Source: an uncultured Actinomycetes bacterium (GTDB lineage: Bacteria; Actinomycetota; Thermoleophilia; Solirubrobacterales; 70-9). Taken from it: 64,000 nt of DNA. The notes beneath the pieces were generated by a model that saw only the letters and a list, made by a program, of their open reading frames with translations, searched no databases and was not told where the DNA came from. Each line of letters begins with the position of its first letter. Position 1 is the first letter of the stretch. The DNA is taken from positions 594,588 to 658,587 of the forward strand of contig CAVZZR010000001.1 of assembly GCA_963779815.1 (NCBI GenBank). The letters are read 5' to 3'. Positions 45,650 to 59,000 of the stretch are shown here, one piece after another. Position numbers and translations under genes: made by a program.

Positions 45650-46245
45650 GGTGGTCGCTACCCCACGAGAGGTGCTGGATGAACTTGCACCAGGTATCCG
45701 CGTTCGCTATCTCCGCAGCGAGCCGCCGCCGCCGTATACCTATGCGATCACCGTTGAGGCCGAGGAGAGTGGTGTTTGGCAGACGGTGCGGCTATGGGAC
45801 AACGCCGACGACGTGAATCAACATCACATACATACATACATATACGCAGCAGGAGGGGAAGCAGAGTCCAAGGATTCTGGATTTCAACTCGGTCAACGAA
45901 GCAATGGCCGCCGCGAAAAAAGAAGCGGAGGAGGGATGGGAGCAGATCGTGAGACAATGGCTGCAGTCATGAATCGCAGAGGGGACAACGAGACGGCGTC
46001 CAGGCGAATGGATGTGTTGCTCACCTCTCCGGAACTCGATACCTACCCCAGCCCCATGCATTTGATCGCCGCCGATAATCCTCGGCACGATGAGATGGCG
46101 ACGAGGGCTCTGCTTGACGGAGATTCTGTCCTGATCGTGTACCCCGACGGACACGAGCTGCTGATCCAGCCTGAGTCGTGCGGCGGCGCCCGCGTTGAAA
46201 CGCGGCATCCGGCGGCTCAGTCCGTCGCCGCTTATCCTTTACGGC
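45650..46245 (+). other. Low-GC (about 57%) island of unknown function with an (ACAT)4 microsatellite and an open reading frame lacking homology I can recognise
   Basis: Compositional drop versus about 72% flanks; acatacatacatacata at about 45826-45842; frame 0 open across the whole island. Confidence 0.4.
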
Positions 46246-47595: not shown

Positions 47596-47800
47596 ACGGC
47601 GGCGCAACTTCACCGGTAAGGGCGTGTTTCTAGGGTCGGCTTTCCAAGCTAGAGCCAGGGAGAGCCGACAACTCCGGCCGGGGGCCTGGACTGGGGGCTC
47701 CGGCCGGGCCGTTGAAACAGGGGGGAGAGGGCGTCGAGTGGACTGGGCTCGGCGCCCTCTTGCTTCGGCGCCGGCTGGCGGACCGCGTATCGCTTATCGT

Positions 47801-48640
47801 ATGGGCGCATGGCCGCCGATCGAGCCGCAGCAGCTGCGGCTCGGCGGCATGGCGCTGCGCAACGGGCTGCTGATCCACGGGCCGACCCACTGGGCGGCCG
47901 CGGTCCGCGCCGCGACGGCGGGATCGAGGTCGCCTCCGAGCGCAAGCCGGAGCTGGCGCCGGGCCTGGTCGCCGACAGCGCCCGGCCTGCGCGGGCCGGT
48001 GAAACTGGCCGAGGCGATGGCGGTGCTGCCGCTGGCGCGGCGGCGGCTGCCGGCGGCGCGGCTGCCGTTCGAGGACCGGCGGGTGCTCGCCGCGGTCGGC
48101 GCGACGCTGGCGCGACCGCGCTGCTGCGCCGCGCGCCTGCGCCACCGGCCGCTGCGCGAGGGCGTGGTGCAGGCGGTCGGCGCGGTGCCGGCGCTGGTCG
48201 CGCTGATCGGACCGCGACCTCGCCGCCTACCACGGCGTCGAGCACAAGGCGATCGCCGCCTACGAGCAGGGGCATCGACGACGTCGCCGGGGTGCCGAAA
48301 GAGCACGACCGCTGCGGCTCCAACCTGATCGTGCCGATGATGCTGCTCTCGGCCGGCGGCACGGTCCTGCTCGAGCGCCTGGTCGAGGAGCCCGAGCCCG
48401 CCGCCCGCGCCGGCGTCGGCCTCGGCGGCGCCTCGCTCGCGGTCGAGATGTTCGCCTGGTGCGACCGCCACCACGGCGAGCCGCTGGCCGAGGCCTTCCA
48501 CGCCCCGGGCCGCGAGATCCAGCGCCACTGGGCGACCAAGGAGCCGACGCCCGAGCAGCTCGAGGTCGGCGGTGGCGGCGATGGCGGAGATCCTCCGCGT
48601 CGAGCGGCGGCGAGGACCGCAGCCGGCCGCATAGACTGCG
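47801..48640 (+). CDS. DUF1385 family protein, about 3 frameshifts
   Basis: MALRNGLLIHGPTHWAAAVR and YHGVEHKAIAAYEQG...KEHDRCGSNLIVPMMLL motifs. Confidence 0.55.
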
Positions 48641-49929: not shown

Positions 49930-50431
49930 GCGGCGTTGCCGCCGCGGTCGGAGTACTCCTGCTCGTCCGGTCAGCCGGTCCAGATCCTGGCCGGCCATCG
50001 CCTTGGCCAGGAGGCCGTGCAGCTGCGCTCGCTCGGCCTGGCTGAGGTTGCCGAGCACCTCCTCCTCGAGCGTCCTCCAGCTTGCGCCTCGGCCTTCTCC
50101 AGCGCCGCGAGCCCGGCGGGGGTGATCTCGACGATGTGGCGGCGGCGGTCGCGGGGTCGCGGCGGCGCTCGACGTAGCCGTGCTCGTCGAGCTCGTTGAG
50201 CAGGAGCACGCAGTTGTTGGGGTCGAGCATCAGCGTCTGGCCGAGCGCCTGCTGCAGGCAGCCTCTCGGTGTCGCGCAGGTAGTTCGAGCGCGATCAGCT
50301 GCTTCAGCCGCATCCCGAGCACGTCCTCGGTGGCGCGGCGGTAGACGACGCGGGAGAGCTGGGATCAGAAGCCCGATCGAGCCGGTTGCGGTTGCCGGGT
50401 TCATCGCTGGATCTCCGAGCATATCGGTCAT
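49930..50431 (-). CDS. MarR family transcriptional regulator, about 2 frameshifts; boundaries approximate
   Basis: wHTH LGQTLMLDPNNCVLLLNELDEHGYVERRRDP; divergent from the MFS transporter. Confidence 0.6.
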
Positions 50432-50498
50432 TTGTTAATCGATCTTAACTTCAACGAAGGATAGTCATTGCTACAGTGATCGATCCCATGTCAGCTAC

Positions 50499-52016
50499 AT
50501 GAATCCGAGCCTGACCAACCAGTCCGTCCACCTCCGACCGATCCCGCTGGATCGCCCTCGTCGTCCTCTGCGTCGGGATGCTGATGATCGTCCTCGACGC
50601 CACCATCGTCAACGTCGCCCTGCCCTCGATCCAGGACGACCTCGGCTTCTCGCAGTCGAGCCTCGCCTGGGTCGTCAACGCCTACCTGATCGCCTTCGGC
50701 GGCCTGCTGCTGCTCGCCGGACGCCTCGGCGACCTGCTCGGCCGCCGCGACGTCTTCCTCGCCGGCCTCGCCCTCTTCACCGCTCGCCTCGCTCGCCTGC
50801 GGCCTCGCCCAGAGCCAGGAGATGCTGGTCGTCGCCCGCTTCGTCCAGGGCGTCGGCGGCGCCCTCACCTCCGCCGTGATCCTGGGGATGATCGTCACCA
50901 TGTTCCCGGAGCCCGGGCGAGCAGGCGAAGGCGATCGGCGTCTACAGCTTCGTCGCCTCCGCCGGCGGCTCGATCGGCCTCCTGGCCGGCGGCGCCATCA
51001 CCGAGGCGATCAACTGGCACTGGATCTTCTTCGTCAACCTGCCGATCGCGTCGCTCACCGGCGTCCTGGCGCTGCGCGCTGCTGCGGCGCGACCGCGGCC
51101 TCGGCTTCGGCCAGGGCGCCGACGTGCCCGGCGCGCTGTTGATCGTCGCCGCCCTGATGCTCGGCGTCTACACGATCGTCGAGGCCACCGACTACGGCTG
51201 GGGCTCGGCCCACACGCTCGGCTTCGGCGCCGGCTGCGCTGGCCCTGCTCGCCGGCTTCGTCGTCCGCGAGGCGCGGGCCGCGCAACCCGCTGGTGCCGC
51301 TGCGGATCTTCCGCTCGCGCAACCTCCCGGCGCCAACGTGATCCAGGCGCTGATGGTCGCCGGGATGTTCGGGATGTTCTTCCTCGGCGCCCTCTACCTG
51401 CAGCGCGTGCTCGGCTTCGACTCGCTCGAGGTCGGCCTCGCCTTCCTGCCGGTGACCGGGCTCATCGGCATGCTCTCGCTCGGCTTCTCGGCGAAACTGA
51501 ACCTGCGCTTCGGGCCGCGGGCGACGCTGCTGCCGGGCCTGGTCCTGGTCGGCGCTCGGCCTGCTCTACTTCTCGCGGATCTCGCGCCGACGGCAGCTAC
51601 TGGACCGAAGTGCTGCCGGCGATGGTCCTGATCGGCGACCGGCGCCGGCCTCTCCTTCCCCTCGCTGATGAGCCTGGCGATGGGCGGGGTCGCGCCGCGA
51701 GGAGGCGGGCCTCGCCTCCGGCCTGGTCAACACCAGCCTCCAGGTCGGCGGCGCCCTCGGCCTCGCCGTGCTGGCGACGCTGTCGACCAACCGCACCAGC
51801 GACCTGCTGGCCGGCGGCGACGCGCAACGCGGCGGCGCTGACCAGCGGCTACCAGCTCGCCTTCCTGGTCGCCGCCGGGCTTGTCGCCCTCGCCGTGCGG
51901 TCGCCGCGCTGGTCCTCGAGCCGCTGCGCCGCCGGCCGGCGCCGGCCGGCGAGCCGAGCGACCGAGGCCGAGCTCGGCGAGCTGCCGAGCCCGCCTTCTC
52001 CTCCGAGGCGGTCTGA
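50499..52016 (+). CDS. MFS transporter, DHA2 (14-TM drug:H+ antiporter) family, about 5 frameshifts
   Basis: MLMIVLDATIVNVALPSIQDDLGFSQSSLAWVVNAYLIAFGGLLLLAGRLGDLLGRR signature and downstream TM segments across frames. Confidence 0.7.
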
Positions 52017-52163: not shown

Positions 52164-52620
52164 ATGGCTGGGAGTGGGGAGAGGCACACAGGGTCTGCCT
52201 GCGCCTGGCCTATCGCTACGCGAGCAATCCGAGCGAGGCCGAGGACATCGCCCAGGACGCCTTGCTCCGCGCCTGGCGCCGGCGCTCGACGCTGCGCGAC
52301 GGCGAGCGGCGCAACCAGTGGCTGGCGACGATCGTCCGCAACGAGGCCTTCCGCCAGCACGCCCGGCCGCGGCCCGACCCGACAGCGGCGATCGAGGCTC
52401 TCGAGGGGGCCGAGGACGAGCAGGTCCTGGCGACGGTCGAGCTCGCCGACCTGCACGCGGCGCTGAAGCGGCTCGACCGGCGCGAGCGCGAGCTGCTGGC
52501 GATGCGCTACCAGAGGACCTGACCCAGGCGAGATCGCCCGCCAGCTCGGCATCCCGGAGGGGACCGTGAAGGTGCGGCTGCACCGCGCCCGCGCAACCTG
52601 CGCCGAGCTACGCGCCGCAG
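52164..52620 (+). CDS. ECF-family sigma-70 factor, at least 2 frameshifts; end uncertain
   Basis: Region 2 LRLAYRYASNPSEAEDIAQDALLRAWRR; region 4 LTQGEIARQLGIPEGTVKVRLHRAR. Confidence 0.6.
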
Positions 52621-52710
52621 TAGGCCTGTACACGGGGGCGAGCGCGCTGGCGGGAAGTTCGGACCGCTGGATAACGACGCGCGGCCGGCGCCCGCGGCCA
52701 CTATTGGGTA

Positions 52711-53485
52711 ATGAAGACTGTGCACCGCGGCAGATCGTCGCCTTCGGCGGCGGCGGCTTCTCGATGGAGTCGGGCAACCCGCTGCTCGACGACTACGTGC
52801 TCGGCGCTGACCGGCGCCGAGCGGCCGCGGGTCTGCTTCCTGCCCTCGGCCAGCGGCGACGCCGACCACTACATCGTCCGCTTCTACCGCGCCTTCTCCG
52901 CCCACCGCTGCGAGGCCAGCCACATCTCCCTCTTCCGCCGCGAGCAGGGGCCCGAGGACCTCCGCCGCCACCTCCTCTCCCAGGACCTGATCTACGTCGG
53001 CGGCGGCAGCGTGATCAGCCTGCTCGGCGTCTGGCGGGCGCACGGGATCGACTCGATCCTGCGCGAAGCCTGGGAAGCGGGGGTGATCCTCTGCGGGCTC
53101 TCGGCCGGCTCGCTGTGCTGGTTCGCCGAGGCGGTGACCGGCTTCCACGGCGCGCCGAAACGGCTCGAGGGCCTCGGCCTGCTGCCGTTCAGCAACTGCG
53201 TCCACTACGAGCGCGGCTCCAAGCGCCGCGACTCCTACCACCGCTTCCTGCGCGAGGGGATGCGGCCGGCGGCTACGCGGCCGAGGACGGCGCCGCCCTG
53301 CACTTCACCGGCGAGGAACTGAGCCGGGTCGATCTCCTCCCGCCCGCAGGCGCGCGGCTACCGCCTCGACGTCTCCGGCGCAGCGCGTGGTCGAGATGCG
53401 GATCGCGACCACCTACCTCGGCGAGCGCGGGGTCGTCCCGGCGGCCCCGCTGCCCGAGGCGCTCTCCACCGCGGTCGCCGCCTGA
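52711..53485 (+). CDS. Peptidase S51 (dipeptidase E / cyanophycinase-like) family protein, copy 1, 2-3 frameshifts
   Basis: RQIVAFGGGGF, LSQDLIYVGGGSVISLL, CGLSAGSLCWFE, HYERGSKRRDSY. Confidence 0.65.
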
Positions 53486-54290
53486 TGGGGCACCGGGTCC
53501 CGACGGGGGTGCGGGCGGGACCGCGCCCGCGCCGGACCGCGGTGCGCCGCATCCTCGCCCTCGGCGGCCACGACTTCACCTCGCGCCCGCCTGACCGCGC
53601 GGTCTGCGAGCTGCTGCTGCGGCTGGCCGGCGAACGCGGCGGCGAGCGGCCGCGGATCTGCATCCTGCCGACCGCCAGCGGCGACACCTCCGAGCAGATC
53701 GGCCGCTTCTACGCCGCCTTCGGCGAGCGCTCCTGCGAGCCCTCCGACGTCTCGCTCTTCCGGCTCGGCCGGCGGCCGATGGCGCTGCGCGACCACCTCC
53801 TCTCCCAGGACCTGATCTACGTCGGCGGCGGCAGCCTGGTCAACCTGCTGGCGGTCTGGGAGGCGCACGACATCGCCTCGATCCTCAGCCTCGCCTGGCG
53901 GCAGGGCATCGTCCTCGCCGGCCAGAGCGCCGGCGCGATGTGCTGGTTCGAGGCCGGGATCACCAAGTCCTCGGGCAAGCCGCTGGCGGCGGCCGGGCTC
54001 GGCCTGCTCTCCGGCAGCCTCTGCGTCCACTACAACAACGAGCCCGAGCGCCGCGCCGCCTACCTCGAGGCGGTCGGCGAGGGGATGCCCGAGCGGCTAC
54101 GGCCTCGACGACTACGCCGGCCTGCTCTGGGAGGGAGAGGGACGCCCCTCGGCGGTGACCGCCCGCCGCGGCGCCCGCGCCTACCGCGTCAGCCAGCAGC
54201 GCAGGCGGCGTCGCCGAGTCGCCGCTTGCCGGCCCGCTTCCTGCCGGCCCCGGCTCCCGCCGCGCTGCGCGAGGACATCGCCGAGTTCCG
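53485..54290 (+). CDS. Peptidase S51 family protein, copy 2 (tandem paralog), at least 1 frameshift; 3' end approximate
   Basis: RRILALGGHDF, LSQDLIYVGGGSLVNLL, AGQSAGAMCWFE, HYNNEPERRAAY; ATG overlaps the stop of copy 1 (ATGA). Confidence 0.65.
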
Positions 54291-54418
54291 CCGGATCAAG
54301 ACGATGCGCAAAACGAGCCGGCTGGCTCGGCTGAAGTCACAAAGCTTCCTCAACCCCGCCTCCGAACATTTGCTTTTGTGCGCGAGCTGTTGCAACTTTT
54401 CGTCTACAGTCTGTCATC

Positions 54419-54864
54419 ATGGAGGCACTGAAGATGGAGCGGCCGATGGACAACTGGAACGACGACCGGCTCGACGAACTGAACCGGCGCATGGGGGACG
54501 GCTTCACGAAGGTAGATGAGCGGATCACGAAGGTAGACGAACGGTTCGACCGGGTCGACGAGCGGTTCCAAGCAGGTAGACGAACGGTTCGACCGGGTAG
54601 ACGAGCGGTTCAAGCAGGTAGACGAACGGTTCGACCGGGTAGATGAGCGGTTCACGAAGGGTAGACGAACGGTTCGACCGGTTGGACAAACGGTTCGAGC
54701 AGGTCGCCATCCGCGAGAGCGTCACCGAGGTGAAAGAAAGCGTCGCTCGGATCGACCGAAGGCTGGAGCGGTTCGAAACTCGGATGGAGCAGCGGATGGA
54801 CCGGTTTACCTGGGCCTTCGTCGCGTTGGTGCTGGCCTTGCTGACGAGACGGTTCGTCAACTAG
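54419..54864 (+). CDS. Small C-terminally membrane-anchored coiled-coil protein built from about 9 heptad repeats (VDERFDR / VDERFKQ), 2 frameshifts inside the repeats
   Basis: MEALKMERPMDNWNDDRLDELNRRMGDGFTKVDERITKVDERFDRVDERF...VDERFDRLDKRFEQVAIRE...MEQRMDRFTWAFVALVLALLTRRFVN*; single +1 insertions at ttcCaagcag and aagGgtagac split it into three listed ORFs. Confidence 0.55.
54506..54706 (+). repeat. In-frame 21-nt (7-codon) tandem repeat, about 9 copies (42-nt super-period), inside the gene above
   Basis: ggtagacgaacggttcgaccgg / gtagacgagcggttcaagcag units repeated directly. Confidence 0.8.
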
Positions 54865-55946
54865 AGCTTCCAGCGGAAGCCGAGCGCGCTCGATCGCCGG
54901 CTCCAGCGGGCTGCTCGGCAGGCCCGGCCTGCGTCGCCTGCTCTGGGTCGTTGTAGCCGCCCGGGGCGACGTCGTTGGGCGTGTCCGGGTGGAAGATCGA
55001 GGCCAGGTACTGGATCTGGCCGCGGCCCTGGCCGAGCTCGGTCTGGCCGCCGCCGTAGGCGCCGATCCCGCGCTCCTCGCAGTAGTCGTAGGCGGCGAAG
55101 AGGTCGCTGATCGGGCCGAAGCGCGAGGGCTTGACGTTGACCGTCTTCGGCGGCGACCAGGGCATCGCCTCGATGTCGGCGATCGAGTGGATCGGCGCGT
55201 CCCAGGTGACCCGCTCGGAGACCGGGTCGAGCAGCGGTTTGGTCTCCTCGGTGACGTCGGGGTCCTCGAGCCAGGCGTCGGGGAAGGTCTCGATCAGCTT
55301 CGCGTAGAGCTCGGGGTCGGTCTCGACGTCGACCGGCGTGCCTTTGTAGAAGCCCTTGAGGTCGAGCGAGTCGACGGCGCCGGTCTCCGCCAGCGCCGCG
55401 ATCAGCTCGTCGTCCCAGTCGTTGGCCGGGTCGAGCTTGAAGCGCAGGGTCGGGTAGACGGCAAGGCGCGCAAGCAGCGGCTCGATCGAGGAGCGCTCGC
55501 CCGCTTCGAAACCAGCCAGCCGCATCGAGTTGACGAAGTTCAGCGGCCGCGGCTCCCGCCCCAGCGCCTCGGCCAGGTTCGGTCCCAGCCTGGCGCAGCG
55601 CCAGGTCCAACGCCGCCGACTCGAAGGCCCAGCGCCGGTAGTCGCGGCGAGACGTCCCCGCGCTCCGGCGCCCCGGCAGGAAACAGATCGATCCCATCCA
55701 GCCGCTCGGAGAACTCGGCAAAGGTAAAGCTGCCCGCTCCAGCCCCTCCGGCGGCCCATGGCTCTGCTGGCCGATGTGGTCGATAGCGTCATAGACGACG
55801 TCCTCGCCGATCCCCTCCTCGACCACCGCCGCGAAGTCGAACGATCGTCGTCAGCCGTTCAAACTCGCCGACGGTGATCTCAAGCCCCTCGAACCCACAG
55901 CTCTCGATCTCCAGCGGCAGATCGGCGATCGCGTCGAAGCTGGCCA
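54857..55946 (-). CDS. Enolase-superfamily (mandelate racemase / o-succinylbenzoate synthase-like) protein, 1-2 frameshifts
   Basis: N-terminal TIVRLRGGGEEGIGE (GxGE capping motif), long C-terminal barrel-like region; family call tentative. Confidence 0.4.
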
Positions 55947-56030
55947 TGCTTGGGAGCGTAGAGGAGCCGGGAGAGGGGTCTCCGGACCCTCCCCGCTGTT
56001 GTCCGGAGGCCCCCCTCCCCCGGCTCCTCC

Positions 56031-57502
56031 CTACAGCGCCACCCGAAGAGTCTTCAACTCCCGATCCGAACCCCCCCGGACATACCCGCCGTGGTCAAGG
56101 CTTTCCCGGATGAAGTCAAGAGTCTCCGGAGTAAGCCGCTCGCCAGGAAGCACATTCGGAATCCCCGGCGGATAAGCCGCCAGCCCCTCGGCGGCAACCC
56201 GCCCCGCCGCAGCGTCGAAGGGAACAACCTCCTGCGGCCCAAGGAACGCTTCGCGCGGCGTCAGCACCAGCTCTCCCCAGGGCGGCGCCGGCGCCAGCTT
56301 CTCGTCCGGCGCCCCCGGCGTCTCCTCCAGCTCGGCGACCGCCTTGCGCAGCCCCTCGACCAGCCGCTCGCCGCTCTCCTCCGCCCGCTCGCCGACGCCG
56401 AAGATCGGCGACGACGACGTTGCCCGAGTAGAGCTCGAGGTCGATCTCGCTGACGTGGAAGGCGGTCTTCCAGAGCCGCTGGGCGCTGGAGCCGGTGCCG
56501 CGGACGTCGATCCCGAGCCGCAGCGGGTCCCAGCCGGCGACGCCGGGCCGTCCGACCATCCGCTCGTCGAGCACGTCGAGCCCGGGGATCTCGCGGATCT
56601 TCTCGCGCGTCTTCGCCAGCCCCGCCATCGCCTCGCTCAGCATCTCCTCGCCGTGCACGTACATGTGGCGGCGGGCGGCGTCGAGCGAGCCGGCGAGGAG
56701 GCCGCTGGGGCTGGTCGTCTCGACCAGGCTGACGCAGCGGTCGACGACGGCGCCGTCGATGCGGCCGCCGCGGCCGAGGTGCAGCATCGCCGACTGGGTG
56801 AGGCTGCCGACGATCTTGTGGGTCGAGGAGGTGACGAGGTCGGCGCCGCAGGCGAGCGCGTCGGTCGGCAGGTCGGGGTGGAAGTGGAGGTGCGCGCCCC
56901 AGGCCTCGTCGACGACCAGCGGCACGCCGCGCGAGTGCGCGACCTCGGCCAGCGCCGGCGACATCGGCGCAGGCGCCGAAGTAGGTCGGGGAGACGACCA
57001 TCGCCGCCACCGCCTCCGGGCGTCTCGTCAAGCGCCGCCGCCAGCGAGTCCGGCGTCAGCCCGTGGGCGATCCCCAGCTCGGGGTCGAGCTCGGGGGCGA
57101 CGAAGGTCGGCCGCATGCCGCTGAGGACGAGGCCGTCGATCACCGAGGAGTGGACGTTGCGCTGGACGACGACCCGGTTGCCGCCGTGGGCGAGCGCCAT
57201 GCAGGCGGCGTGGTTGCCCTGCGAGGCGCCGTTGCCGAGGAACCAGGTGCGGCCGGCGCCCCAGGCCTCGGCGGCGAGCTGCTGGGCCTGCTGGAACGGC
57301 GTCGGCTCGGGCCCGACGTCGACCCCCTCGGTGACCGAGGGGATGTCGTTGCGCAGCCCCGCTTCGCCGACCAGCGCCAGCTCGCCGGGTCGGCGCCGAT
57401 GCCGCCCTTGTGCCCCGGCACCTGGAAGCGGCCCGGGTCGCGCTTCGCGTAGGCGAGCATCGCGTCGACGTAAGGAGTGGACTCCTGACCCTCTCCTGGC
57501 AT
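56031..57502 (-). CDS. PLP-dependent Orn/Lys/Arg decarboxylase (major-domain family), about 3 frameshifts
   Basis: PGHKGG, SSTHKIVGSLTQSAML (PLP-Lys), NGASQGNHAA, C-terminal FIRESLDHGGYVRG. Confidence 0.7.
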
Positions 57503-57596
57503 CGATCCGAGTCTACGGGTCGGCTTCAGGACGACTGGACAAATCCGCGGCCGATCTTTGGACAGAGCCGACGATTCGCTTGGTGGAGAATCCACC

Positions 57597-59000
57597 GATG
57601 CAGCACACCCGCCTGGGCTATTGGATCGAGGAGGCCGGCAAGGCCGCCCCGCAGCCGCCGCTGAGCGGCGAGCGTCGAGGCCGACGTCCTCGTCGTCGGC
57701 GGCGGCTACACGGGGATGTGGAGCGCCTGGTACGCGAAGCAGCTGCGAGCCCGAGGCGCGGGTCGTCCTGCTCGAGGCCGAGCCGGTCTGCGGGCGCGGC
57801 CCGAGCGGCCGCAACGGCGGCTTCTGCAACGCGATGTGGTTCTCGCTCGCTTCGATGCGCGAGCGCTGGGGCGACGTGCCGGCGCTGCAGGTGGCGCAGG
57901 CGGCCGAGCAGGCGGTGGCGCGGATCGGCGCCTTCTGCGAGGAGCACGCGGTCGATGCCTGGTTCCGTCCCGCCGGCTACGTCCAGGTCTCGACCGCACC
58001 GGCCCACGACGGCGCATGGGGCCGGGCGCTGCAGGCCTGCCGCGAGCTCGGGGTGCCGGAGATGCTGCAGCCGCTGAGCGCGGCCGAGGTAGCCGAGCGG
58101 TGTCAGTCGCCGGCCTTCCGCGCCGGCGTCGTCTCGCCGACCTCGGCGACGGTGCAGCCGGCGCGGCTTGCGCTGGGGTTGCGCGAGCAGCTGCTGGCGG
58201 CGGAGGTGGAGGTCTACGAGGCCTCGCCGGTCTCCTCCTTTCGGGAGAGCGGCGACGGCGTCGAAGCCCGTACCGCCTCCGGCTCGGTCCGCGCCGCCCG
58301 CGGCGTCCTCGCGATCGGCAGCGCCGCCAAGGGTCGCCGCGGCCCTCTGCGCGGGCGCCTCACCGTCGCCTCCTCCCACATCGTCCTCACCGAGCCGGTG
58401 CCCGACGTGCTCGAGCAGATCGGCTGGACCGACGGCGACTGCATCACCGACTCCCGTTCCCTGCTGCACTACTTCCGCACCACCCGCGACGGTCGCATCG
58501 CTTTCGGCTGGGGCGGCGGCCGGATCGCGATGGGCGCCCGCACCAAGGGCCGGGCCGAGGTCGACCCCGAGGTCGTCGCCGCGGCAACTAAGCACCTCCA
58601 CGACTACTTCCCCGCCCTCCGCAACCGCCGCATCACCCACGCCTGGGGCGGCCCGATCGACGCCTCCCCGACCCACCTCCCCGCCGTCAGCACACTCCCC
58701 CAGGGCAGCGCCTTCGTCGCCGCCGGCTACACCGGCAACGGCGTCGGCCCCTCCAACATGGTCGGCCGCACCCTCGCCTCCCTGGCCCTCGACGAAGACG
58801 ACGAGCACACCCACCTCGCCTTCGTCGACGCCAAGACCCCCCGCGTCCCCCCCGAGCCCTTCCACTGGATCGGCGGCGAGGCAATCCGCCTCGGCATCCT
58901 CAAGAAAGAGGAGGCAGAGATGCAAGGCCGCCAGCCCGGCCGCGTCTCCTCAGCCGTGGCGAAGATTCCGGAGCTGATCGGCTTCCACATCGGCCGCTGA
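57597..59000 (+). CDS. FAD-dependent oxidoreductase (DAO/glycine-oxidase family), 2 N-terminal frameshifts
   Basis: Dinucleotide fold DVLVVGGGYTGMWSAWYA, then VVLLEAEPVCGRGPSGRNGGF; 480-aa body in one frame. Confidence 0.7.
   Translation, partial: DAAHPPGLLDRGGRQGRPAAAAERRASRPTSSSSAAATRGCGAPGTRSSCEPEARVVLLEAEPVCGRGPSGRNGGFCNAMWFSLASMRERWGDVPALQVAQAAEQAVARIGAFCEEHAVDAWFRPAGYVQVSTAPAHDGAWGRALQACRELGVPEMLQPLSAAEVAERCQSPAFRAGVVSPTSATVQPARLALGLREQLLAAEVEVYEASPVSSFRESGDGVEARTASGSVRAARGVLAIGSAAKGRRGPLRGRLTVASSHIVLTEPVPDVLEQIGWTDGDCITDSRSLLHYFRTTRDGRIAFGWGGGRIAMGARTKGRAEVDPEVVAAATKHLHDYFPALRNRRITHAWGGPIDASPTHLPAVSTLPQGSAFVAAGYTGNGVGPSNMVGRTLASLALDEDDEHTHLAFVDAKTPRVPPEPFHWIGGEAIRLGILKKEEAEMQGRQPGRVSSAVAKIPELIGFHIGR

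Follow-up and report, generated by a model that had tools for sequence, protein, structure and literature searches.

Downstream of two S51 peptidase genes, the window (the whole 64-kb stretch of DNA analyzed here) carries an array of near-identical short repeats encoding coiled-coil heptads, spread over ORF pieces in different frames. This locus raises three questions: whether the pieces constitute one protein-coding gene, whether the breaks between them are genuine, and what kind of protein such a gene would specify.

Organization of the repeat gene

Computational dissection of the locus identified the repeat gene as a real protein-coding gene. As sequenced, it consists of three ORF pieces in three frames, and its length (446 nt) is not a multiple of three; deletion of two extra bases from the repeat yields a single ORF of 444 nt. 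The preliminary description of this DNA had anticipated a corrected protein of 148 aa: one continuous ORF was indeed obtained, and its product has 147 aa (148 codons including the stop). The N-terminal head and C-terminal hydrophobic anchor ascribed to this small protein are both present in the corrected ORF. The distinguished features of the locus are as follows:

54335-54418, + strand: conserved 84-nt intergenic region (DNA alignment of 14 syntenic genomes)
54419-54864, + strand: whole gene, 446 nt, from ATG to TAG (54862-54864), in three frames as sequenced
54419-54511, + strand: N-terminal head MEALKMERPMDNWNDDRLDELNRRMGDGFTK, the family signature (alignment and head-only search)
54512-54702, + strand: nine tandem 21-nt units with a higher-order period of 42/84 nt (repeat finding, codon register and self-match)
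54568-54569, + strand: first frame-breaking extra base, CC compared with a single C in sister unit 5 (unit comparison)
54659-54661, + strand: second frame-breaking extra base, GGG compared with GG at the other junctions (GAAGGGTAG versus GAAGGTAG)
54703-54804, + strand: non-repetitive hinge and juxtamembrane helix VAIRESVTEVKESVARIDRRLERFETRMEQRMDR, equivalent to the "ATREExxEV ... RFDRLYY" segment of the family
54805-54864, + strand: C-terminal hydrophobic anchor FTWAFVALVLALLT (54805-54846), followed by RRFVN and the stop codon (hydropathy analysis)

The array is composed of nine head-to-tail 21-nt units, each encoding a VDERFxx-type heptad, and measures 191 nt including the two extra bases. 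Tandem Repeats Finder, proposed earlier as a check, was run and reported a period of 21 with 9.7 copies over 54498/54511-54704; this result and the nine units in codon register confirm the in-frame 21-nt heptad repeat claimed for the site. Periods of 43 (4.6 copies, 86% match) and 85 (86% match) scored higher than the period of 21 in the same analysis. In codon register, units 1 to 9 read VDERITK, VDERFDR, VDERF(K)Q, VDERFDR, VDERFKQ, VDERFDR, VDERFTK, VDERFDR and LDKRFEQ. Since the DNA of units 2, 4, 6 and 8 is the same at every base, and unit 3 differs from unit 5, and unit 1 from unit 7, by only 1 nt, the array is really a higher-order repeat of 42/84 nt.

The self-match of the corrected array was 0.73 at lag 21 and 0.88 at lag 42, with a maximum of 0.45 in 2000 shuffles, and its periodicity is far above chance. 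All 21-mers occurring at least three times in the 64-kb window come from the VDERFxx array. In the units of this array, Val is encoded by GTA and Glu by GAA, codons that are unusual for this high-GC genome; local GC content is about 0.60-0.68 compared with a window average of about 0.70, and third-position GC is about 0.7, as opposed to more than 0.9 in the neighbouring genes.

Frame breaks in the repeat and across the window

Comparison of sister units located both extra bases. Unit 3 (54554-54575) is 22 nt long and reads TTCCAAG where unit 5 has TTCAAG, while unit 7 (54639-54660), also of 22 nt, has its extra G within the GGG run; it is after removal of these bases that the two units differ from units 5 and 1, respectively, by a single nucleotide. 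Owing to the extra bases, translation passes through each of the three frames, and the ORF listing accordingly gives the pieces 54419-54646 and 54643-54864. The two single-base insertions previously held responsible for splitting the gene into three ORFs were thereby borne out.

These insertions are not specific to the repeat, as the whole window shows an excess of frame-breaking insertions. In protein-level alignments with the closest genomes, intact orthologue ORFs span two to five successive frames of the window, and the genes affected include those designated MFS, MarR, DUF1385, unk155, DAO and enolase-like, as well as both S51 genes. For instance, the MFS transporter gene (50482-52010) passes through frames 1, 2, 3, 2 and 3; the frame order is 2, 3, 1 for the DUF1385 protein, 3, 1, 3 for the 155-aa protein and 1, 2, 3 for the FAD oxidoreductase. 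Chaining over all loci distinguished 16 frame-switch clusters in 10.7 kb, a few of which may come from antisense shadow ORFs.

An orthologue-free check was made with a codon-phase model based on third-position GC. By this model the window was divided into 2.44 phase segments per kb, and the median length of its coding segments was 279 nt; the respective values for 15 related loci were 1.28 per kb and 752 nt. Nucleotide alignment of the window with each of two related genomes revealed 67-72 single-base insertions and 32-35 deletions, while the control pair (L019 and L015) showed 5 and 8, respectively. Many of these indels had matching window positions in the two alignments (e.g. 52153, 52718, 52805, 53173, 54088, 54226, 54310, 54888, 54931 and 57017).

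The broken neighbours are otherwise 75-97% identical at the protein level to intact orthologues, so sequence or assembly error is a much more plausible cause than mass pseudogenization. An excess of 1.2-1.5 breaks per kb corresponds to 0.5-0.7 expected breaks in 446 nt, and thus the presence of two in the repeat gene is unremarkable (P ~0.1-0.15, by our own Poisson estimate). Both insertions are most likely errors of sequence or assembly, as elsewhere in the window, and as such carry no information on the repeat; the underlying gene is probably intact. Because single-base insertions occur throughout, any other findings for this window that rest on split ORFs, frameshifts or pseudogenes are suspect.

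Several observations concern the surrounding DNA. Between positions 46000 and 62000 of the window, comparable genes are nearly all broken by single-base indels, mostly insertions (e.g. in 47759-48567, 49981-50416, 50482-52010, 52562-54334, 54886-55983, 56985-57449 and 57562-58997), and across the entire 64 kb the codon-phase segments are approximately half the length of those in related genomes. The ORF of the second S51 peptidase, listed at 53383-54519 and overlapping the repeat gene, is an artefact of breaks near 54088, 54197-54226 and 54310; in this peptidase gene, TGA at 54332-54334 is the conserved stop.

Distribution of the family

A database search with the corrected protein retrieved more than 2100 heptad-rich proteins, most of which share the repeat alone. 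The head is common to 38 of the best 120 matches, and all 38 possess a C-terminal hydrophobic stretch no more than 12 residues from the end. A scan of a collection with one genome per species identified 23 loci, in metagenome-assembled genomes labelled Solirubrobacterales, "uncultured Actinomycetes" or "Actinobacteria bacterium", and a metagenome scan added four further loci, encoding distant relatives, on unassigned contigs. Each of these 27 loci encodes its homologue in one unbroken ORF, with a length of 60-177 aa. No relatives were found in 2.9 million viral contigs.

The orthologues are built of a head (MEALxMERPMxxWNDDRLDEL...GF), variable VDxRFxx heptads with related units, and a C-terminal hydrophobic tail; an "ATREExxEV...RFDRLYY" segment is often present. 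The window protein has the N-terminal motif M-E-R-P-M-x-x-W-N-D-D-R-L-D-E-L ... G-F, within a 31-aa head in which all the invariant columns (M10, W13, N14, D16, R17, D19, E20, L21 and F29) are conserved, and also the variable VDxRFxx coiled coil (nine units, compared with 0 to ~11 in orthologues). Its head, VDxRFxx heptads and "ATREE" hinge are shared with the relatives from the protein search (e.g. P0001, P0013, P0031 and P0097) and with loci L001-L027, which have a C-terminal TM stretch where the window protein has a shorter, putative one. The window copy has the longest heptad array among the genome loci, P0001 being comparable; it differs from the copies at L001-L027 in its shorter hydrophobic anchor and in the two frame-breaking bases that it carries as sequenced.

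When 1.84 billion cluster representatives were searched with only the 31-aa head, 42 matches were obtained, at 45-84% identity. Forty-one of these have the appearance of family members, being 43-150 aa long and carrying the head at their N-terminus or close to it, and none of the family members retrieved in this search has the head fused to another domain. The remaining match is an unrelated repetitive protein of 334 aa, which was rejected. Many relatives carry the precomputed Pfam label PF27742.1. The window protein belongs to an uncharacterized, ordinary-looking family of small (~60-180 aa), probably tail-anchored coiled-coil proteins which, judging from the collections scanned, seems to be confined to Actinomycetota of the Solirubrobacterales type.

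Two family members, L015 and L021, were found in one genome, approximately 200 kb apart on contig CAVOMF010000002.1. In L021 (177 aa) the VDxRF heptads are replaced by a 21-nt repeat of the VRGEV/GxVKGE type, and a Fic-domain gene lies directly downstream.

Chromosomal setting

The gene order S51 - S51 - repeat gene - enolase-like (convergent) - unk183 - unk155 - DAO is kept at most loci. The window copy occupies the same position, 3' of two S51 genes and convergent with the enolase-like gene; conserved gene order and conserved upstream DNA together make it a positional orthologue. As stated in the preliminary description, two S51 peptidase genes are located upstream. Its assignment of the downstream neighbour held in part: a convergent gene is present there, but its similarity to enolase-superfamily models is weak and sub-threshold.

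The neighbourhoods of the paralogues are heterogeneous (RibD_C, GntR, a solute-binding protein, Fic, PucR-like and ferritin), with no partner gene shared around the four paralogues. Neither their neighbours nor the syntenic ones gave a functional lead. Within the syntenic block, positions 56432-57449 contain two adjacent conserved genes, for proteins of 183 and 155 aa (orthologues at L019:7767-8315 and L019:8319-8783), which are up to 94-98% identical to those of the closest relatives and have no Pfam or NCBIfam match.

Upstream region and translation start

The 84 nt preceding the gene show a mean column identity of 82% in the alignment of 14 syntenic genomes, with many invariant non-coding columns. 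They include TTGCAA at 54390-54395 and a -10-like TACAGT at 54405-54410, 8-9 nt 5' of the ATG. This region is probably the gene's own promoter or operator; alternatively, it may mark a leaderless start. Scans of the locus with sigma-70 consensus promoter and terminator models gave no match, and for the conserved region there was no Rfam match above threshold and no covariation indicative of RNA structure in a consensus-structure test. The 84 nt also carry the motif GT(A/T)G(A/C)AAC-TTTTC-GTCTACAGT, which in the closest relatives forms the inverted repeat CTGTAGA-N9-TCTACAG.

A second, invariant ATG is located at 54434. As it is preceded, at a distance of 8 nt, by GGAGG at 54421-54425 (codons 1-3), translation may start at M6, and a start at MERPM is called in some database orthologues. 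Codons 2-5 vary more at non-synonymous positions than the rest of the head.

Repeat variation within the family

Tandem arrays at the DNA level are the rule in this family, with 21-nt or 42-nt arrays of 74-100% identity. The former include 6.3 copies at 90% identity in L001, 4.0 at 93% in L005, and 4.7 at 85-87% in L004 and L008, while L009 has 2.3 copies of a 42-nt unit at 100%. The regularity of the window array at the DNA level had been regarded as unusual; within the family it is not, and what distinguishes the window is the longest array observed. Other in-frame periods replace or accompany the 21-nt one in some members, namely 33 nt (11 residues; L018:280-353 and L022:6193-6294) and 54 nt (18 residues; L001:6074-6217 and L006:6106-6219), and the arrays of these different periods are independent. 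A coiled coil can accommodate any of the three residue periods (7, 11 or 18).

The relatives nearest to the window copy in their head DNA and flanking genes (L015, L016, L019, L020 and L024-L027) have 0-2 VDxRF heptads and are 65-113 aa long. As the window array has nine units, four of which are identical, its expansion is recent and specific to this lineage. The copy-number change that was expected for such a repeat is evident between species, the orthologues having from 0 to ~11 heptads.

Predicted structure and membrane topology

AlphaFold2, supplied with a 12-sequence alignment, predicted a single uninterrupted helix spanning residues 13-146, with a mean pLDDT of 81. Confidence dips beside the hinge, where the block mean for residues 91-100 is 63. 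Read from the sequence, heptad positions a and d are taken by Phe and Val, respectively, and inter-helix salt bridges could link Asp (position e) with Arg (position g). In a fold search, any coiled coil would be a match for one long helix. Solved structures searched by profile yielded just two hits, both weak and both to coiled-coil-containing chains (TRAF7 and a spike glycoprotein).

Residues 1-125 are rich in charge (37 D/E and 32 K/R), and the sole hydrophobic stretch is C-terminal. The protein therefore has the layout of the tail-anchored class, i.e. one C-terminal hydrophobic segment and neither a signal peptide nor an N-terminal TM segment. The window anchor, FTWAFVALVLALLT, consists of about 14 hydrophobic residues followed by RRFVN and has a Kyte-Doolittle mean of 1.41 over 19 residues; the values for orthologue anchors are 1.66-2.48. 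In all 23 genome orthologues the stretch comprises at least 19 hydrophobic residues, lies within 12 residues of the end, and the C-terminal ends are neutral. The shortness of the window anchor may reflect real divergence or a further undetected error; no hidden frameshift that would lengthen it was found, as reading in either alternative frame leads to a stop or to a non-hydrophobic sequence.

Under the positive-inside rule, the arginines that precede the anchor in the orthologues, where neutral residues follow it, would place head and stalk in the cytoplasm. The two arginines after the window anchor run against this rule in this particular copy.

Matches to known protein families

The corrected protein and 11 relatives were compared with the Pfam, NCBIfam, PHROGs and PADLOC collections, and no curated model was matched at threshold. 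The preliminary description had pointed to a likeness to XhlA or DUF1640. The architecture is similar, but the XhlA model (PF10779) scored 25.6 bits, below its cut-off of 34.7, and was matched by three of the 12 family members at E <= 0.01, while DUF1640 (PF07798) was absent both from the 25 best Pfam families, all of them below cut-off, and from the 25 matched by most members. Other sub-threshold scores were obtained for Exonuc_VII_L (30.9 bits, cut-off 35.9) and DUF1664 (28.8 bits, cut-off 34.6). The best NCBIfam match was the ssr2422 family (NF053525; 31.4 bits, cut-off 38), over residues 15-58 and in eight of the 12 members. The PHROG matches were to families without an assigned function, plus weak ones to "hemolysin" and "hol-like", and those in PADLOC were weak and involved long helical or coiled-coil regions of unrelated proteins.

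Proposed role and alternative explanations

In our opinion, the gene probably encodes a cytoplasm-facing, tail-anchored coiled-coil stalk whose length is varied by its repeats, and the frame breaks are errors. We hypothesize that the conserved N-terminal peptide PMxxWNDDRLDEL would be presented by a stalk into which the Phe-a/Val-d heptads zip as a parallel homo-oligomer. Beyond the stalk, a short hinge would lead to the single C-terminal TM segment anchoring the protein in the membrane, with head and stalk remaining in the cytoplasm, and the protein may act as a membrane-tethered spacer or docking stalk. Slippage or unequal recombination could add units to the in-frame 21/42-nt repeats or remove them, in which case stalk length would differ among genomes while head and anchor stay fixed. 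A bolder version, according to which the stalk is throughout the lineage an "adjustable ruler" that holds a docking peptide at a genome-specific distance from the cytoplasmic membrane, its length being actively tuned through in-frame repeats of coiled-coil-compatible periods (7, 11 and 18 residues), selected and fast-evolving, strikes us as rather doubtful.

If both insertions were real, the gene would be a recently inactivated pseudogene in this organism. It is broken twice, its anchor looks degraded in comparison with those of the orthologues, and a long, recently expanded repeat could be unstable. However, breaks of the same type are present in nearly every neighbour checked, including genes 87-97% identical to intact orthologues, and apart from the two breaks the heptad frame is perfect and the corrected frame is free of stop codons; inactivation is therefore unlikely. 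Still less credence can be given to functional breaks, i.e. phase variation or programmed frameshifting within the repeat. The two extra bases do extend short homopolymers in the repeat (C to CC and GG to GGG), but slipped-strand switching needs longer runs than these of 2-3 bases, and the reading would take two shifts in succession, both in one direction; moreover, the same insertions pervade unrelated genes and all 27 orthologues are in a single frame, which renders such a mechanism extremely improbable.

Two further alternatives concern the nature of the locus itself. An XhlA-like partner of holin and endolysin in a prophage lysis cassette would have the same layout, and it would agree with the sub-threshold Pfam XhlA match and the weak PHROG matches to "hemolysin" and "hol-like". 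The Pfam score falls short of the cut-off, though, with three of 12 members matching, the S51 and enolase-like neighbours are in stable chromosomal synteny in more than 20 genomes, and no relatives were detected in the 2.9 million viral contigs, so we consider this role very unlikely. A reading of the repeat as non-coding DNA, such as a protein-binding array with an incidental ORF, is close to negligible and is refuted by comparison of the orthologues: antisense ORFs also cross the array, but at 27 loci with an intact ORF the protein sequence of head, hinge and anchor is conserved, and the DNA varies while the heptad pattern is fixed.

With the stalk protein as the preferred reading, a broken three-piece ORF is now assigned to one conserved gene, and a small family is defined by its conserved head, variable heptad stalk, tail anchor and fixed synteny. 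It provides a clean example of a coiled-coil stalk built through tandem-repeat turnover, although the direct consequence of the finding is little.

Comparison with known systems

XhlA, from the lysis module of prophage PBSX, is small as well and combines a coiled coil at its N-terminus with one TM segment at its C-terminus. Its gene is described in lysis cassettes, adjoining those for holin and endolysin. XhlA itself has neither a long tandem heptad array nor the WNDDRLDEL head; the window family, unlike XhlA, has no lysis-cassette neighbours and was not found on viral contigs. The ssr2422-family thylakoid membrane protein (NF053525) is likewise a small membrane protein, and its model scored below cut-off; the literature retrieved on this family contained nothing informative on it.

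In the Bdr proteins of spirochetes, an in-frame tandem repeat that varies in copy number occupies the centre, and a hydrophobic anchor the C-terminus. Their repeat unit is 11 aa long, and they are plasmid- or prophage-borne and form multigene families. The resemblance to the window family is one of analogy only, with no detectable sequence relationship. In Borrelia, the Bdr proteins are small, inner-membrane-associated and of undiscovered function (PMC10016077).

Tail-anchored membrane proteins have been documented in an actinobacterium, Streptomyces (Craney et al. 2011, PMC3087755). They represent a topological class and not a homologous family, and the membrane insertion of the window protein is predicted. 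What the window protein has in common with bacterial proteins of this class is the lack of an N-terminal signal sequence and a single, putative TM segment at the extreme C-terminus.
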